A stretch of 6,070 bases of DNA, taken from positions 1 through 6,070 of IMG/VR virus record IMGVR_UViG_3300045988_001464; one strand, written 5' to 3'. This document shows positions 786 through 6,070 of this stretch, piece after piece; the stretch's first letter is position 1, and every line of letters begins with the position of its first letter. The notes under the pieces are model-generated. The model ran no database searches. It was given only the letters and a program-made list of their open reading frames with translations, and was not told the origin of the DNA. Source of the DNA: a virus. The position numbers were made by a program, and so were the translations under genes.

Positions 786-2465
786 TTAAACCATACGGTT
801 GAATATATTATTAGCATCATTAAGTTTCTTGTGCTTAATCATATCACGACAGAATGTTGCACTACGATACCAGAGTTGCTCAAGGAGTTGAACCGTTTCA
901 CATGAAACGTCCGACAAGACATCACGCTCCTGCCCGTTCGAAGGCAACGCAAACATACAATCCGAAAGTTCGGGGTATTGGGCACGGAGGTTATATGCAT
1001 TTCGTAAACTTTCATAATTCTTTTTCTTCTCATACTCTATGCCTTTCTTAATAATAAAATCAATACGACCGGAGTAAGCACTAATATCAGAACCGAAGCC
1101 AGGCAAATGCCAGTTACGGAAGAACTTAAAGGCAAATAAGAAAAGCCGATATAACTTATTAATATAAGATTCAATATCGACATCGCTAGAACTGTTACAG
1201 AACCTAGTAAGGCACCGAGCAGAATGTAATATAATCTTATCATCATCAGTAAGAATAGGATTAACTTTAAGATATTGATAATAAGTGCGGACAAGACTCA
1301 AAACTGAGTCCTGGGCATAGTCAATGAATCCGAATTTTGCAATTCTTTGAGGCGTTCGGTGTACAGCGAGAAGAATTCGAGCAATCGCAGTACCATCGTC
1401 ATTGCGAGCAGACGAGAATCGGGGCAATAAGGTACGGATATACGACATGGGTGGAGTTGACCGAACACTGATACCGTTGAAATTATAGACTCTTCCGTTA
1501 ACGACAGAATCGATTTTTTGCTCAATTTGCGCATAAGGATCTTCATTTTCCACGAAATCGCAACCTTTCTCAAAGAATCCGAGAGACGCTCTTGATCGGG
1601 GTTTAAACGAGCGGCATGAGCGATATAATAAGGGAGCAGAACTAAGGCTGTTAACGTAACTCGCAACGTACGAACTAGCGCCGCCAGCGGCACGTTGGAA
1701 ATCTGAACGACCGAGTTTCCAACTCTTAGCGTGACAGTATCGTAAAACCTCGGCGACTTTCTCCGAGTTCGTGAATAATAAGAGATGATAATGCGGGCGA
1801 AAATGCACGGGTCCGTACTCACCCACAGCGTAGAAATGTAACGGTTCATAAGATCCTAGTTTTAAAGATAAATGTTTGCGTAAGCGCTTAATATAATTCT
1901 GAACATCAACATAATTCAGGAAGGGTATAAGATTATCACGGCCGTATTGCGCAGAAGCGGGATAGTCCGTTTTATCAACGGCTTGCGTTTTACCGATAAA
2001 ACTACGAATAGCATCCATACTAAGAAACCAATTATCCTTAACAGGAACATATTCCTTAATCTCACGGTCAAACGGAACAGTGCCCTGAACCTGTTCGAAA
2101 AAAATATGACGCAACACGGAGTTATCATTACATTGATACTCGGAAACAGGGATATATTTATGATATTCATCACCAAAATGAATATCTCCTGAGATACCTA
2201 CAACGTCCTCATATTCACTATGCAAGACTTTACAATCAAATAGAGGGATATGTTCGTTATCATACGTAAGCGTAACAAAATAAGAATACTTAAAAGCACT
2301 TCCAGCGGTCTTCACGCGCATGGACGCTTTCTGAGCACGCTTATGGATACAATAATCGCATTGACCACAATCCACGGCAATGCGTGCACCAGTGTAACGA
2401 TTAGTAATAAATGAACGATGTTGACAATGGTCAACCGCTTTCAGTAAATCAGGAGAAAATTTCAT
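786..2465 (-). CDS. VP4: Replication initiation protein VP4 (HUH rolling-circle endonuclease, phiX174 gpA-like), 559 aa
   Basis: N-terminal Cys cluster CGQCDYC (aa 33-39). RCR motif I is FVTLTYD (aa 63-69). Motif II (HUH) is HYHLLLF (aa 225-231, nt 1785-1793 for HYH). Motif III with two tyrosines is YVASY (aa 266-270, nt 1656-1670). Stop is TAA at 788-786, 18 nt before the VP1 start. Confidence 0.95.
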   Translation of the reverse strand: MKFSPDLLKAVDHCQHRSFITNRYTGARIAVDCGQCDYCIHKRAQKASMRVKTAGSAFKYSYFVTLTYDNEHIPLFDCKVLHSEYEDVVGISGDIHFGDEYHKYIPVSEYQCNDNSVLRHIFFEQVQGTVPFDREIKEYVPVKDNWFLSMDAIRSFIGKTQAVDKTDYPASAQYGRDNLIPFLNYVDVQNYIKRLRKHLSLKLGSYEPLHFYAVGEYGPVHFRPHYHLLLFTNSEKVAEVLRYCHAKSWKLGRSDFQRAAGGASSYVASYVNSLSSAPLLYRSCRSFKPRSRASLGFFEKGCDFVENEDPYAQIEQKIDSVVNGRVYNFNGISVRSTPPMSYIRTLLPRFSSARNDDGTAIARILLAVHRTPQRIAKFGFIDYAQDSVLSLVRTYYQYLKVNPILTDDDKIILHSARCLTRFCNSSSDVDIESYINKLYRLFLFAFKFFRNWHLPGFGSDISAYSGRIDFIIKKGIEYEKKKNYESLRNAYNLRAQYPELSDCMFALPSNGQERDVLSDVSCETVQLLEQLWYRSATFCRDMIKHKKLNDANNIFNRMV

Positions 2466-2467
2466 AA

Positions 2468-2776
2468 TTATTTACGTTTATCAATTACTTGGTGACGATT
2501 ACGACAACCAAATGAAATATGAATAAATGTGGGATATAATATCAACTGATCAAATACATGAACATCATCCGAATATCTATGAATATATTCAAGTAAATGA
2601 TTATAAGAAGTAGAACCATAAGGTTTCATATCAATAGCCTCTCCAACCAAATGCTGAGATGTAGGAGCACCATTACAAGCTTTATTCTGTTCAGGAGTAC
2701 GTCTAGCACTAGTCACCGAAAAATGAACATTAGAGTAGAGCAGATACTCAAGAAAATGCATAAGAATATAATTCAT
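2468..2776 (-). CDS. Peptidase M15 (M15A / Peptidase_M15_3-like) zinc D-Ala-D-Ala carboxypeptidase-type cell-wall hydrolase; putative endolysin, 102 aa
   Basis: SARRTPEQNKACNGAPTSQHLVGEAIDM matches the family signature (S-x-x-R-T/S-P-x-x-N ... S-x-H-x(6)-D). The candidate zinc ligands are His42 (nt 2653-2651), Asp49 (2632-2630) and His86 in FIHISF (2521-2519). There is no N-terminal signal peptide or TM segment. The start overlaps the upstream peptide's stop (ATGA at 2776-2773), and its stop lies 2 nt before the VP4 ATG. Confidence 0.85.
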   Translation of the reverse strand: MNYILMHFLEYLLYSNVHFSVTSARRTPEQNKACNGAPTSQHLVGEAIDMKPYGSTSYNHLLEYIHRYSDDVHVFDQLILYPTFIHISFGCRNRHQVIDKRK

Positions 2777-2859
2777 AGTCCGATAGCATTAAGAATATAG
2801 CCTAATGCGGCAGAAACAGCACCGATAACAATTTTCCAAATATTACTACTTTTCATCAT
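2773..2859 (-). CDS. 28-aa single-pass membrane peptide (MMKSSNIWKIVIGAVSAALGYILNAIGL); candidate holin-like or lysis accessory peptide
   Basis: This is the only open frame bridging the end of the 64-aa ORF (2846) and the peptidase start (2776). It has a short polar, Lys-containing N-terminus followed by a roughly 19-residue Gly/Ala-rich hydrophobic helix. 15 of 28 codons end in T, matching the genome's genuine coding frames. Its start overlaps the upstream ORF by 14 nt, and its stop overlaps the peptidase ATG. The upstream part of track ORF 2773-3102 is rejected as an off-frame artefact. Confidence 0.5.
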   Translation of the reverse strand: MMKSSNIWKIVIGAVSAALGYILNAIGL

Positions 2860-3040
2860 TTTGAATTTTAAGCTCAACAAAGTTATTTTCTTCCTTAATC
2901 GAATCCACAATAACAATAAGACCCAATGAAGAAACTCGCTCAGAATAATTTCCGAGACCATCGAGAGAATCGACAATATAAGGCGAAATAACATCACGAC
3001 CAGTGTTTTTTTCCTTAACCGAAATAATAAACTTTTGCAT
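2846..3040 (-). CDS. Hypothetical protein, 64 aa, first gene downstream of the promoter
   Basis: MQKFIISVKEKNTGRDVISPYIVDSLDGLGNYSERVSSLGLIVIVDSIKEENNFVELKIQNDEK has ordinary soluble-protein composition and mostly T-ending codons. It sits about 45 nt downstream of the predicted transcription start. I recognise no family. Confidence 0.6.
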   Translation of the reverse strand: MQKFIISVKEKNTGRDVISPYIVDSLDGLGNYSERVSSLGLIVIVDSIKEENNFVELKIQNDEK

Positions 3041-3091
3041 AATTGTAAGAATTTTAAAAGGTTAATAATAGTTGTAACTTCTAACTGGGGG

Positions 3092-3122
3092 CAAATATAC
3101 AAACTATTTTCATAATTGCAAA
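3092..3122 (-). promoter_or_regulatory. Bacteroidetes-type promoter: -33 TTTG (3122-3119) and -7 TATATTTG (3099-3092), with a 19-nt spacer
   Basis: The minus strand reads cTTTTGcaattatgaaaatagtttgTATATTTGcccc. This fits the Bacteroides primary-sigma consensus TTTG / TAnnTTTG. I found no other exact TAnnTTTG on the coding strand by eye. It lies in the AT-rich end of the intergenic region, preceded by an A9 tract (plus-strand T9 at 3132-3140) and followed by the first ORF at 3040. Confidence 0.5.
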
Positions 3123-3160
3123 AGAAAACTATTTTTTTTTAGATCCTACCGTAGGGTGTG

Positions 3161-3229
3161 AGTTGTGCGTTTATGGACAAGAGAAAGGAGAAATCGAGAG
3201 GATAACTCGATTTTGCTTCGCACACAACT
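3161..3229. other. Nested stem-loop: outer stem 3161-3169 / 3219-3229 (9 bp, 2-nt bulge) enclosing a perfect 8-bp hairpin 3191-3198 / 3206-3213
   Basis: agttgtgcg pairs with cgcaca(ca)act. The inner hairpin is aaatcgag-aggataa-ctcgattt. The direct repeat gcttcgc occurs at 3215-3221 and 3234-3240. Confidence 0.6.
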
Positions 3230-3253
3230 AGGGGCTTCGCTTAATTAACAAGT

Positions 3254-3274
3254 GGGTGTATACAGAGGTGTATA
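3254..3274. repeat. Two tandem iteron-like copies of GGTGTATA (3255-3262 and 3267-3274, 12-nt period)
   Basis: The sequence reads gGGTGTATAcagaGGTGTATAgg. The same 8-mer, and the 9-mer GGGTGTATA, recurs at 3395-3403. Confidence 0.6.
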
Positions 3275-3279
3275 GGCAC

Positions 3280-3302
3280 GGCAAGGCAGAAACTGTCTTG
3301 CC
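3280..3302. other. 9-bp hairpin (ggcaaggca-gaaac-tgtcttgcc, one G-T pair)
   Basis: Pairing was checked position by position, from 3280-3302 inward to 3288-3294. It is followed by TTT on the plus strand. Confidence 0.6.
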
Positions 3303-3320
3303 TTTGCGCACCTACGTGCT

Positions 3321-3343
3321 AAAATACCGAAGCGGAACGCTTC
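3321..3343 (-). terminator. Possible weak intrinsic terminator for the minus-strand operon: hairpin gaagcg-ttc-cgcttc followed by ggTATTTT
   Basis: The 6-bp GC-rich stem is 3329-3334 / 3338-3343. The minus-strand T-rich tail is the complement of aaaata at 3321-3326. The same region can also fold into a longer 12-bp imperfect hairpin (3331-3363) that is followed by T6 (3367-3372) on the opposite strand. Confidence 0.3.
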
Positions 3344-3378
3344 TTTAAGGAAGTCGCTCCGCTCCGTTTTTTGATCAG

Positions 3379-3425
3379 GCCCTACGCGGGCGGCGGGTGT
3401 ATATCGCTCAAACGCCGCGATGGGC
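3379..3425. other. GC-rich stem-loop: core stem gcggcg (3390-3395) / cgccgc (3413-3418), 17-nt loop carrying the third GGTGTATA copy, outer clamp gccc/gggc
   Basis: The core stem is 6 G-C pairs. The loop 3396-3412 reads ggtgtatatcgctcaaa. Positions 3379-3382 pair with 3422-3425 across an internal loop. The 60 nt at 3361-3420 contain 37 G+C by direct count, visibly above the rest of the genome. Confidence 0.6.
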
Positions 3426-3431
3426 TTTTAG

Positions 3432-3457
3432 TCCTGAAGCATGCCAGGGTATCAGGA
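3432..3457. other. 6-bp hairpin tcctga / tcagga with a 14-nt loop, the first structure after the VP2 stop
   Basis: 3432-3437 pairs with 3452-3457. The loop contains the palindrome gcatgc. Confidence 0.45.
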
Positions 3458-3499
3458 TGCAATGTATAAATATACTCATATTTACGACACGTAGAAAGA

Positions 3500-4603
3500 T
3501 TATTTACGGCCAAAGTTACCAAAATGAGCACCAGCGCCAATAACATTACCAGCACCAGAGGCAACAGCACCAAGACCACGGGAGACAGAATCCCAATAAT
3601 GAGTACGGCCTTGTTTGCGAACCAACTCTGCGCCATATTCAGCAGCTCTCTGGTTTGCCATAGAAGTCTTATATTCCGTATGTTTACGAAGCTTAACATT
3701 CTTGTAATCATAAGTAGAATCACGATACTGCAATTCATGCGAAGCATTAGCAGCCTTGATTAAAGAATCAGCCGTCTCGGAAGCCACACGATTATCAATT
3801 TTCTTACCAGAAGCCTCAGCAGCAGTAAGAATAGCACGCTGAATTTCAGTCTGGATTTGCTTCTCAGTAAGAGCACCTTGAGTCTGGAGATTGGCTAAGG
3901 TTTGAGCCTTAATAAACAAATCAGCCTGTTGGTTCTGGTCCATATATTTATTCATAATACGTTGAGCATCAGAATTAAGCAAAATCTGTGCTTCTTGAGC
4001 AGCAGATATACGTTCAGCAAACTGGGCGTTTTTTAAATTCTGGGCCTCAGTAGACTGGTCCAAAGCAGCAGATACACGGCCCGTATCCTTATTCCAATAA
4101 CCGGAGGAGCCAATAGCTAGATTCTTCCAGTTAGTAAGACCTCTATAATAATCAGACAAAAGAGGAGTTACCGTATCAGTCTGACGTGCACGAGAGCCTG
4201 ATTCACCAGCAGAAGCCTCAGAAGCCTTAGCTTGAGCAAGGGAAGCAAGAGACTGAAACACGCTAGAAAAATTAGGCTTATAGGCCTGCATACTAGGAAC
4301 AGGAGCAGCAGTAGCAGCAGCTCCGCCTGAAGCAGGGGACCTAGAACCAGCCATAGCAGCAGAACCTTGAACAAACGGATTCAAACCGCGGGAAATCATA
4401 GCGCTAGGAGAGTTATAGGCATTATTCATACCCCACATCTGTTGCTGCCAATCACGTTGTATTTGGGCCTGTTGAGCATTAAACGCGTTTTGTTCACGCA
4501 TCATGCGGAGATTAACCTTATTCTGATGATTCTGATTAACCATACCGACAACATTGTCGGTAAGGTTTGCAGCCGAGGAAGCTATAGCATCAAATAATCC
4601 CAT
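3500..4603 (-). CDS. VP2: Minor capsid / DNA pilot protein VP2 (phiX174 H analogue), 367 aa
   Basis: The N-terminus MGLFDAIASSAANL...NKVNLRMMREQNAFNAQQAQIQRDWQQQMWGMNNAYNSPSAMISRGLNPF matches the conserved VP2 N-terminal block of gokusho/alpavirus-type microviruses. It is followed by an Ala/Ser/Gly-rich linker, a long Gln/Ala-rich helical segment and a Gly-rich C-terminus. The ATG overlaps the upstream stop (TAATG at 4605-4601). Confidence 0.85.
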   Translation of the reverse strand: MGLFDAIASSAANLTDNVVGMVNQNHQNKVNLRMMREQNAFNAQQAQIQRDWQQQMWGMNNAYNSPSAMISRGLNPFVQGSAAMAGSRSPASGGAAATAAPVPSMQAYKPNFSSVFQSLASLAQAKASEASAGESGSRARQTDTVTPLLSDYYRGLTNWKNLAIGSSGYWNKDTGRVSAALDQSTEAQNLKNAQFAERISAAQEAQILLNSDAQRIMNKYMDQNQQADLFIKAQTLANLQTQGALTEKQIQTEIQRAILTAAEASGKKIDNRVASETADSLIKAANASHELQYRDSTYDYKNVKLRKHTEYKTSMANQRAAEYGAELVRKQGRTHYWDSVSRGLGAVASGAGNVIGAGAHFGNFGRK

Positions 4604-5054: not shown

Positions 5055-6070
5055 TTAATAAGGTAAACCATTTCTATCCAAGTTCTGTACGGCATATACT
5101 TGGAAATTAACATTACACAACAACTGGTCAAATGCAATAGAACAGTTAGCAGCATCAACTTGAGGAACGAATATAGAATTCAGCTGTTGAGGACGAACTT
5201 TCATAGACTGGTAAGACCAAGCACCGGAAGAAGTCAATACCTGCCAGCCATCAAGAGGAGCAGACCAAAACTGATAAGCAGCACCAGCACGGAATCCAGC
5301 GTGAACGGTATCAATATTAGATTTCCATTGCCAATAACGGAGGTTATAACCAAGAGAACCAGAAACACTACGGCCAGGGTTATTCTGAAGATTCAGAGCA
5401 GGGACAACCTGCATACCAAGCTGATCAAATGCAGGTTGCGGGAAGTCAGAGACAGCAGTCACGGTCAGTTGAGGATTTTGGCCAGTCAGATTCCAATCCA
5501 GCATAGGTACAGCGTGATACACACACATAATTACCTGATGTTCAGCGCCACAGTCATAAGTAATAGTATGTCCGGAATTACTAGATACACCTTTGCCAGC
5601 AATAGAAGCCTGAGAAGAATCAGAATCAAGATTAGTATTAACTACCTCATTAATATTAATTACACTAGACCAACCGCCAATATAATGTGCATGATTGCCC
5701 ATGTATTCGGGGGCTTTAATACCAAATTGGGCGGCCATCTGGTCCGAATAATCCTTGCTAGCAAATTGAACTACTTCTTTCCAGCGCTGGAGATACTCTG
5801 TTGCACGAATTGAGAGAGCAGATAAATCAGAGTTTAATACAACATTACGAAGACCAGAAGTAGAAGAAACAGTTACACCAGCGCTACCATCAAGAACACG
5901 AAGAGGAGAAGACAAAGGGAGAGTAACAATACGATTAGAAGAAGCTCCAGCTTGATCAAAAGTCGGAGGTAGAACAGCAACCGAACCATACTGACTACTC
6001 GGGAACATGCCCATAAAATAATCCTTCGGATAGTTCGCATAGCGAAGCTTAAGCATATCGGGGTATAATG
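5055..6070 (-). CDS. VP1: Major capsid protein VP1, C-terminal part (6016-6070 duplicates 1-55; the real continuation is 6015->5055)
   Basis: Track ORF 5055-6056 begins at an internal Met (MLKLRYANYPKDYF...) that is also read at 41-39 in the N-terminal piece. The frame stays open up to 6070. Stop is TAA at 5057-5055. Codons are predominantly T-ending, as in the other genes. Confidence 0.92.
   Translation of the reverse strand, partial: LYPDMLKLRYANYPKDYFMGMFPSSQYGSVAVLPPTFDQAGASSNRIVTLPLSSPLRVLDGSAGVTVSSTSGLRNVVLNSDLSALSIRATEYLQRWKEVVQFASKDYSDQMAAQFGIKAPEYMGNHAHYIGGWSSVININEVVNTNLDSDSSQASIAGKGVSSNSGHTITYDCGAEHQVIMCVYHAVPMLDWNLTGQNPQLTVTAVSDFPQPAFDQLGMQVVPALNLQNNPGRSVSGSLGYNLRYWQWKSNIDTVHAGFRAGAAYQFWSAPLDGWQVLTSSGAWSYQSMKVRPQQLNSIFVPQVDAANCSIAFDQLLCNVNFQVYAVQNLDRNGLPY
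6016..6070. repeat. Terminal direct repeat, copy 2 (duplicate of 1-55)
   Basis: Exact 55-nt identity with 1-55. This is redundant sequence, not extra genome. Confidence 0.95.

Follow-up and report, generated by a model that had tools for sequence, protein, structure and literature searches.

The window analysed here is the whole 6,070-nucleotide (nt) stretch of IMG/VR record IMGVR_UViG_3300045988_001464, a circular microvirus contig; a 55-nt direct terminal repeat (positions 1-55 and 6016-6070) implies a circle of 6015 nt, all of whose genes lie on the minus strand. Ahead of its replication gene we found a very small conserved gene for a predicted membrane peptide of 28 amino acids (aa), joined to the gene of a 102-aa M15-type zinc peptidase. 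We propose that the two form a compact lysis cassette, in which a membrane-acting lysis effector is accompanied by a dispensable, acquired M15 endolysin; we put the chance that this reading is right at about even. The region comprises three open reading frames (ORFs), which lie exactly where the original prediction, an earlier reading of this DNA, had placed them:

3040..2846, minus strand: ORF of 64 aa (A64)
2859..2773, minus strand: mini-ORF of 28 aa
2776..2468, minus strand: M15 peptidase of 102 aa

Both overlaps described in that prediction are also present: A64 and the mini-ORF share 14 nt, and the mini-ORF and the peptidase gene 4 nt (ATGA).

Firstly, we assessed the identity of the enzyme. 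By its sequence profile, the 102-aa protein is a genuine zinc peptidase of the M15A/Peptidase_M15_3 type, shortened at its N-terminus. It matches Pfam PF08291 Peptidase_M15_3 (E=1.6e-8, 35 bits for a cut-off of 23.2) and PHROG 894 'endolysin' (E=3.5e-13). A profile made from 52 homologues (identity 32-71%) has as its top match the zinc D-Ala-D-Ala carboxypeptidase of Streptomyces albus (PDB 1lbu, E=1.8e-11), followed by hedgehog N-domains, VanY and phage L-Ala-D-Glu peptidases (LAS zinc-peptidase group). The M15 assignment of the original prediction is thus borne out, and so are its His/Asp/His ligands: H42, D49 and H86 (His-x6-Asp plus a C-terminal His) are invariant across the 52 homologues, in motifs that align with those of 1lbu and of the hedgehog N-domains, and S23, R26 and D76 are nearly invariant. 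The AlphaFold2 (AF2) model of the peptidase (predicted local distance difference test, pLDDT, 77.5) has a loop of low confidence at residues 31-43; in BFVD it matches the predicted structures of viral M15A peptidases (E ~4e-5 to 1e-3, template modelling score 0.55-0.66), several of them from marine microviruses. Homologues are typically 130-150 aa long, and the microvirus peptidase is about 35 N-terminal residues shorter. The absence of a secretion signal had been correctly noted: hydropathy (Kyte-Doolittle, 19-residue window, here and below) peaks at 1.04, with no signal or membrane segment. Since the N-terminus is neither hydrophobic nor basic and the first helix belongs to the fold in the AF2 model, the peptidase is most likely made in the cytoplasm. 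The protein (1916 clusters at 90% identity; ratio of nonsynonymous to synonymous substitution rates, dN/dS, 0.21) can be regarded as a putative endolysin. Its presence in a microvirus is already known: M15 peptidases of gut microviruses, with a proposed endolysin role, were published in 2012 (PMC3394797) and the proposal was restated in 2022 and 2024 (PMC9239249, PMC11499846). The window's enzyme is like those of Roux et al. 2012 (PMC3394797) and of later surveys in its PF08291 domain, gut origin, position before the replication gene and proposed role. Of 11 genomes, 5 were recorded as having an adjacent 'unknown ORF' (PMC3394797, PMC9239249, PMC11499846).

Secondly, we established that the mini-ORF is a real gene under purifying selection. 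Its peptide, MMKSSNIWKIVIGAVSAALGYILNAIGL (28 aa), begins with a short N-terminus that is polar and basic; a single hydrophobic helix of ~22 residues, rich in small residues (GAVSAALG), makes up the rest, to the C-terminus (...YILNAIGL); no charged residue follows K9. Hydropathy peaks at 2.0 over residues 10-28, versus 1.04 for the peptidase and 0.75 for A64, so that only the mini-ORF product is membrane-like. The ATG sits 14 nt inside the end of A64 (AAT GAT GAA AAG TAG in A64, ATG ATG AAA AGT AG in the mini-ORF), and the TGA overlaps the peptidase ATG (CTATGAAT). With 72 ORFs of at least 20 aa in the window, an ORF of 28 codons is not by itself beyond chance; we judge it real because it is conserved. 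A first set of relatives (56 from IMG/VR, found through the peptidase, and 10 from GenBank) has an ORF of 27-29 aa whose end falls on the peptidase start or shortly ahead of it. The nearest GenBank records (79-86% DNA identity) belong to unclassified microviruses sampled from the gut of dog, lemur and human; in their annotation the peptidase and the 64-aa ORF are present and the mini-ORF is left out. Two larger sets were retrieved by motif: clade 1, comprising 105 distinct microvirus contigs, by a degenerate DNA pattern of the mini-ORF core, and its sister clade 2, comprising 46 contigs, by a second mini-ORF pattern. The mini-ORF is present in 151/151 of these contigs, even though the clade-2 peptidases are only ~50% identical to that of the window. 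In clade 1 it is 27 aa long in 99/105 contigs (consensus MKSNNIWKIVIGAVSAALGYILNAIGL), with GTG in place of ATG in L042, and in clade 2 it is a 29-aa ORF, MKSETKSKIWSAIIAAAVSLLTSIAQIFS; the core WK.(V/I)IGAVSAALGY hardly varies. In 94/97 clade-1 contigs the stop of the mini-ORF overlaps the peptidase ATG, and in 39/46 clade-2 contigs it lies 3 nt ahead of that ATG. Codon-position entropies (first/second/third) are 0.28/0.016/0.685 in the non-overlapped part and 0.043/0.007/0.461 in clade 2. The dN/dS ratio is 0.09, at a proportion of synonymous differences (pS) of 0.39, which is a tighter constraint than that on the peptidase. The conservation check that the original prediction had asked of its mini-ORF thus comes out in its favour, and the mini-ORF is the conserved core of the membrane component. 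In three GenBank relatives (Dulem viruses 243, 238 and 226; L061-L063, 738-1112), the annotated peptidase coding sequence is 124 aa long, from an upstream in-frame ATG. A fusion of peptidase and membrane helix was considered here and rejected, since the annotated 21-aa N-terminal extension is non-hydrophobic; it overlaps the mini-ORF in another frame and is not conserved as protein, and the annotated start is probably a misannotation.

Thirdly, we examined the mini-ORF frame upstream of its own ATG, where a conserved ATG at 2994, inside A64, would start a longer product:

2773..2994, minus strand: 73-aa long form (B-long), MLFRLILSILSMVSEIILSEFLHWVLLLLWIRLRKKITLLSLKFKMMKSS...AIGL, in the mini-ORF frame, +1 relative to A64

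This long form is predicted to begin with a hydrophobic segment (hydropathy maximum 1.9), which a basic loop connects to the conserved membrane helix at the C-terminus. Its N-terminal 45 codons lie in the +1 frame of A64; the conserved helix itself is not overprinted. Openness and hydrophobicity of the frame were rejected as evidence: all long alternative ORFs lie in +1 frames, and third codon positions are 46-65% T in this genome, so that hydrophobicity in the +1 frame is largely a by-product. The long form was judged only by calibrated stop-avoidance and pS tests. Synonymous randomisation of A64 gave 4.1 expected stops in the +1 frame for 0 observed (P=0.0045); in the calibration, observed stops agreed with expected stops for the genes of the peptidase, a 146-aa protein, the pilot protein and the capsid protein. 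Variation among the 105 genomes of clade 1 gave the following counts:

A64, +1 frame: stop-creating synonymous variants 1/22, other synonymous variants 61/101, P=7e-7
146-aa gene, +1 frame: stop-creating 13/19, other synonymous 181/237, P=0.41
Peptidase gene, +1 frame: stop-creating 6/11, other synonymous 142/176, P=0.054
Capsid gene, +1 frame: stop-creating 41/65, other synonymous 868/1086, P=0.0025
Pilot gene, +1 frame: stop-creating 25/42, other synonymous 498/656, P=0.026

The control genes were judged free of such depletion, and none of the +2 frames was depleted of stop-creating variants in this test. The pS of A64 is 0.19 in the overlapped part and 0.42 in the non-overlapped start, with 0.39-0.48 in neighbouring genes. 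An in-frame upstream ATG is found in 104/105 clade-1 contigs, and the long form is interrupted in one clade-1 genome. Selection thus keeps the upstream frame open in the window's clade, where the 73-aa form is probably an additional isoform. A64 is itself periodic in its own frame (entropies 0.23/0.17/0.74 in the non-overlapped part, second positions being the most conserved; dN/dS 0.15), and since the +1 frame is also selected, the region is dual-coding. In clade 2, the long form is absent (≤33 aa) in 15/46 contigs and stop-avoidance is unsupported (1/6 versus 62/102, P=0.08). As the start of the mini-ORF is kept and the long form is not universal, the short peptide is the conserved unit. Whether canonical holins are much longer than the membrane component, as first supposed, is hence uncertain: this would be so for the 27-29-aa form, but not for the 73-aa form, which has the size of an ordinary class II holin.

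The third member of the predicted cassette fared differently. A64 is an acidic, soluble, beta-rich protein that hosts the overprinted N-terminal part of the long form. Its relatives fall into 3082 clusters, all microviral; it has no match in Pfam, PHROG or NCBIfam, and its AF2 model (pLDDT 76.8) has no significant match in PDB. These family and structure searches gave no link between the A64 protein and lysis, so that a cassette of three genes is not established; the mini-ORF and the peptidase gene are real and adjoin each other.

The dependence of the membrane ORF on the enzyme could be judged from relatives without the latter. In 7/105 clade-1 contigs (L134, L147, L154, L156, L167, L182 and L206, all from IMG/VR), A64 and a membrane ORF with intact core are present and there is no M15 gene anywhere in the contig; the replication gene follows ~55 nt after the membrane ORF. 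One of the seven has a 99-nt terminal repeat and is hence a complete circle; L147 is record IMGVR_UViG_3300045988_000161. Their peptides have a slightly different C-terminus (...LSAIGV). Since the seven are scattered in the tree of replication proteins and have one AT-rich spacer allele of ~55 nt in common, the data suggest a presence/absence polymorphism of the peptidase that was spread by recombination. It follows that the peptidase is dispensable and that the membrane ORF serves a function independent of it. The idea of a membrane partner of the enzyme is therefore upheld as to position, next to the peptidase gene, and has to be revised as to role, the membrane ORF being more than such a partner. 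One of these contigs, L156 (IMGVR_UViG_3300014538_000037, 5571 nt), has a deletion (at ~1000-1254 after rotation) that removes the promoter-like region described below and the first half of A64; the membrane-protein frame is still open there, from a new upstream ATG (66 aa). The contig may represent a defective genome or an error of assembly.

The sequence upstream of the cassette is a 459-nt non-coding stretch between the pilot gene and A64. Its predicted signals are:

3092..3122, minus strand: promoter-like element of Bacteroidota type (TTTG, 19 nt, TATATTTG), ~52 nt upstream of A64
3329..3343, minus strand: terminator-like hairpin with T-run, between the pilot gene and the promoter-like element
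3213..3191, minus strand: terminator-like hairpin with T-run, in the same non-coding stretch

The promoter-like element is the sole match in the window to the Bacteroidota consensus scanned (TTTG, 19-21 nt, TAnnTTTG). It is not significant alone (0.28 matches expected; at least one match in 49/200 shuffles), and, although the spacers differ, the motif recurs at the same position in 34/57 relatives; TTnnTTTG is the -7 box of the 16 non-matching relatives that were inspected (L005 aside). A consensus scan of positions 2400-3560 gave 4 terminator-like sites for 0.7 expected, and the hairpin at 3329..3343 may be the upstream boundary of the transcription unit. Together, the promoter-like motif and the terminator-like hairpins suggest a single transcription unit and a Bacteroidota host. 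A prophage search of 185,579 species genomes gave no close copy (top identity 42%), so that we infer the host only indirectly; 9/20 of the matches were in metagenome-assembled genomes of Bacteroidales. By eye, the 459-nt stretch is comparatively rich in G+C; it has no Rfam match, nor did any Rfam family match elsewhere in the window.

The resemblance to lysis cassettes of double-stranded DNA (dsDNA) phages, on which the original prediction had rested, is supported by three comparisons. In Bacteroides phage BS-TP2, the holin gene gp5 overlaps the start of the PHROG 894 endolysin gene gp6 by 4 nt; Stenotrophomonas phage Siara has an M15 endolysin, a holin/antiholin and spanins; and in many IMG/VR contigs that resemble dsDNA phages or prophages, what ends at the start of the peptidase gene is either the gene of a multi-helix protein of 102-109 aa or a single-helix ORF of 38 aa. 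As in the BS-TP2 and Siara cassettes, a signal-less M15A-type peptidase directly follows a small membrane-protein gene, in one predicted transcription unit. Unlike those cassettes, that of the window is carried by a 6-kb single-stranded DNA (ssDNA) microvirus, its enzyme is ~35 N-terminal residues shorter, its membrane protein is 27-29 aa long, or 73 aa and half overprinted, has no charged C-terminal tail and also occurs without the enzyme, and no spanin is seen in the window. We further compared the membrane protein with five features of holins, namely a membrane helix, a size of ~60-150 aa, a charged C-terminal tail, adjacency to the endolysin gene and family similarity. A helix is predicted from hydropathy (maximum 2.0; second segment of the long form 1.9), the short form lies below the size range and the long form within it, and adjacency is evident from the stop-to-start spacing in both clades; tail and family similarity are taken up below. 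Phage 21 offers another comparison: its pinholin S21 68, which acts with a signal-anchor-release (SAR) endolysin, is a class II holin of ~70 aa with two membrane helices, including a glycine-zipper helix. The 73-aa form is like S21 68 in its two hydrophobic segments and basic loop and in the small-residue face of its C-terminal helix (G-A-V-S-A-A-L-G). It differs in sequence and in its absence from a third of the clade-2 genomes, and the window's peptidase, unlike that of phage 21, has no SAR domain, so that small holes would be insufficient to release it.

A similar arrangement was found in another microvirus. In Bajarodmic virus 1034 (PQ007304.1; L072, 515-610), an annotated 31-aa single-helix ORF, MSTKNKTFETILRVIIAVASALAGAFGYSQF, belongs to Pfam DUF6486 (PF20096, peptides of ~31 aa; E=1.8e-11) and is separated by 25 nt from the downstream gene of a full-length M15 peptidase of 162 aa. 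The mini-ORF resembles it in size, position and helix pattern (R/K-V/I-I-I-A/G-x-x-S-A-L-x-G). Membership of the mini-ORF in DUF6486 was nonetheless rejected: neither the window's peptide nor the clade-1 variants match the model, a clade-2 variant reaches only E=0.15 and 12 bits (cut-off 22.7), and hhalign gives a probability of 29% over 15 columns. DUF6486, of which we found no mention in the literature searched, may be lysis-associated. Other microviruses with full-length peptidases (~140-160 aa) show varied contexts, some with no room for a partner. In Bajarodmic virus 550 (PQ006745.1; L075, 519-1040), the peptidase frame is open for 26 codons upstream of the annotated start. The residues encoded there are hydrophobic (MRNTRNFQTPLLSFLFSGIVLIINLVMAM...), which may point to a peptidase of signal-anchor type or to an artefact of codon bias.

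These observations can be joined in a scheme in which we infer membrane insertion, lesion formation, release of the enzyme, the start codon or codons used and the host phylum. The cassette, just ahead of the replication gene, would be transcribed from its own Bacteroidota-type promoter. Its constant element would be a very small membrane protein, the 27-29-aa single-helix peptide, which in the window's clade is probably also made as the 73-aa two-segment form. Late in infection, the membrane protein would build up in the cytoplasmic membrane, where the small-residue face of its helix (GAVSAALG) may serve oligomerisation or contact with a membrane target and so lead to a breach of the membrane. 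The 102-aa peptidase, translated by re-initiation at the overlapping ATGA, would then get to the peptidoglycan despite its lack of a signal and cut the peptide stems, and the cell would burst. The peptidase would thus be a horizontally acquired, dispensable endolysin and the membrane protein the indispensable effector. In favour of this scheme, the gene order matches that of the holin-endolysin pairs of dsDNA phages, and the mini-ORF has been kept though the peptidase has diverged to ~50% identity.

Several points weigh against it. The charged hydrophilic C-terminal tail typical of holins is not present in the membrane protein, which also has no significant holin-family match in Pfam, PHROGs or NCBIfam; its best matches, all below threshold, are Phage_r1t_holin (E=0.033), PHROG 937 hemolysin (E=0.072) and PHROG 443 holin (E=0.13). 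Its insertion into the membrane is a prediction from hydropathy, and co-transcription of the cassette is suggested by a single promoter-like motif. A spanin-like gene was not seen, though the host is probably diderm. For the enzyme, a Foldseek search of solved structures with the peptidase model gave no significant match (best VanY, E=0.14), so that the M15 assignment rests on the sequence profiles and the BFVD matches. The seven genomes that keep the membrane ORF without a peptidase weaken a strict reading as a holin serving an endolysin and bring up the alternative of the membrane protein as the primary lysis effector: a pure holin without an endolysin should not lyse the cell, so either the membrane protein acts alone or those genomes lyse otherwise. 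Finally, the gene of the replication protein (Rep) contains another candidate for a holin gene, the hydrophobicity of which is partly a by-product of codon bias:

1037..1246, minus strand: very hydrophobic 69-aa ORF (MMIRLYYILLGALLGSVTVLAMSILNL...LLLRKA), +1 frame of Rep codons ~406-475

With a TTG start, this ORF would extend to 1294. In 104 relatives it is likewise open, with a length of 62-83 aa, and variants that create a stop number 2/18 versus 71/135 for the others (P=8e-4).

A narrower form of the proposal is that, in this very abundant lineage of gut microviruses, the 27-29-aa peptide itself forms the membrane lesion. Most genomes would use it as a minimal holin for their truncated endolysin, those without a peptidase would lyse the cell by it alone, and the 73-aa form would be an antiholin-like regulator or an enhanced isoform. 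We put this forward tentatively, as possible rather than probable; if it is true, no holin-like or lysis protein known so far is smaller.

Another explanation, which we consider unlikely, is that the membrane protein brings about lysis by itself, as single-gene lysis proteins do, by blocking a membrane step in the supply of cell-wall precursors or by triggering autolysis, the peptidase being a dispensable booster without a dedicated holin. Protein E of phiX174, of 91 aa, is overprinted in the +1 frame of gene D, as the long form is in the +1 frame of A64. Equally small effectors are known, since LysM of phage M, which blocks MurJ, has only 37 residues (PMC12506998), and L of MS2 has 75 aa and a C-terminal membrane helix (PMC10688784). 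Like these, the window's protein is a tiny single-helix protein of a very small genome, and in the seven peptidase-less relatives it persists, core intact, with no wall-degrading enzyme. Moreover, the stronger constraint on the peptide (dN/dS 0.09, versus 0.21 for the enzyme) suits a specific protein target better than a generic pore. However, neither the mini-ORF nor the long form has any sequence similarity to E, L or LysM, and unlike the genomes of those phages, most of those considered here, the window included, encode a wall-degrading enzyme directly after the membrane ORF; only the seven relatives are single-gene in this sense. In 143/151 contigs, the enzyme that follows has holin-partnered homologues and its start is usually overlapped. 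The peptidase is also under purifying selection and hence no passenger.

It is less probable again that the role of the membrane ORF is unrelated to lysis (superinfection exclusion, burst modulation as by phiX174 K, or membrane anchoring of replication or assembly), its place next to the peptidase gene being due to genome compactness and the enzyme reaching the wall otherwise, for instance by way of the 69-aa Rep-embedded ORF. The persistence of the membrane ORF without the peptidase would agree with this, as would the missing holin-family match and charged tail, and selection appears to maintain two more ORFs in the +1 frame of Rep, of which that at 1037..1246 is very hydrophobic. Yet hydrophobicity in +1 frames is largely a by-product of T-rich third positions, which makes the Rep-embedded ORF weak evidence, and the arrangement has been kept in two clades despite ~50% peptidase identity. 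Holins hold the same position ahead of the homologous enzymes of dsDNA phages, and a mini-ORF of similar kind precedes the full-length peptidase gene of an independent lineage.

We regard it as improbable that the peptidase is not an exported endolysin at all, and instead cleaves precursors in the cytoplasm (D-Ala-D-Ala or UDP-MurNAc-peptides, in the manner of VanX or VanY) or is a virion-associated entry enzyme. Classical microviruses do lyse by blocking wall synthesis (phiX174 E), the peptidase has no export signal, and its family includes enzymes that cleave precursors in the cytoplasm or at the membrane, with VanY among the profile matches. Against this, its closest characterised relatives are phage endolysins in holin cassettes, and the strongest profile match is of M15A type and not VanY, with no VanX among the matches listed. 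For a virion enzyme, there is no evidence of packaging, and a T=1 capsid has little room. Last, the mini-ORF is short, unannotated in GenBank and set amid overlapping start and stop signals, but that it is untranslated and owes its conservation to an element in the DNA or RNA, for instance a signal for re-initiation at the peptidase gene, is scarcely credible given its three-base periodicity in two clades (second positions nearly invariant, third free), its low dN/dS at high pS, its maintained start codon, its retention in genomes with no peptidase to re-initiate and the absence of an Rfam match.

The remaining genes of the window are:

Crossing the contig ends, minus strand: major capsid protein, 575 aa
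5043..4603, minus strand: 146-aa protein
4603..3500, minus strand: pilot protein, 367 aa
2465..786, minus strand: replication protein (Rep), 559 aa

Beside the 69-aa frame, Rep contains a second long ORF, of 183 aa (MNRYISTLWVSTDPC...; 1298-1849, minus strand, +1 frame of Rep codons 205-388). Its ATG is kept in 104/105 relatives, stop-creating variants number 0/18 versus 173/349 for the others (P=8e-6), and Rep third-position variability falls there; it has no family match, and appears from these patterns to be a candidate overprinted gene comparable to A*/B/K of phiX174. Stop-creating synonymous variants in the +1 frame are also few at pilot codons 1-60 (4424-4603; 1/9 and 0/4 in pilot-gene windows) and at capsid codons ~141-180 (0/6), which could reflect further short overlapping ORFs or chance. 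The stop-avoidance analysis thus indicates that several conserved overlapping genes are absent from these genomes as currently annotated.

It is an open question how microviruses outside the phiX174 group bring about lysis of their hosts. They rank among the most abundant phages of mammalian guts. A lysis role of the enzyme had been suspected before, and this part is not new; the membrane component that a signal-less enzyme needs is not described in the literature found, which likewise held no functional work on microvirus M15 peptidases and no report of an overprinted ORF or of peptidase-less sister genomes. The membrane partner, the overprinted long form and the peptidase-less sister genomes are thus new, as far as literature searches show. 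If the proposed cassette is real, a holin-endolysin-type system would have been squeezed into an ssDNA phage, partly by overprinting, and an unusually small membrane effector would be defined. Natural pairs of genomes with and without the peptidase would separate the effect of the membrane protein itself from the contribution of the enzyme, and the cassette would provide small, synthesisable parts for lysing Bacteroidales.

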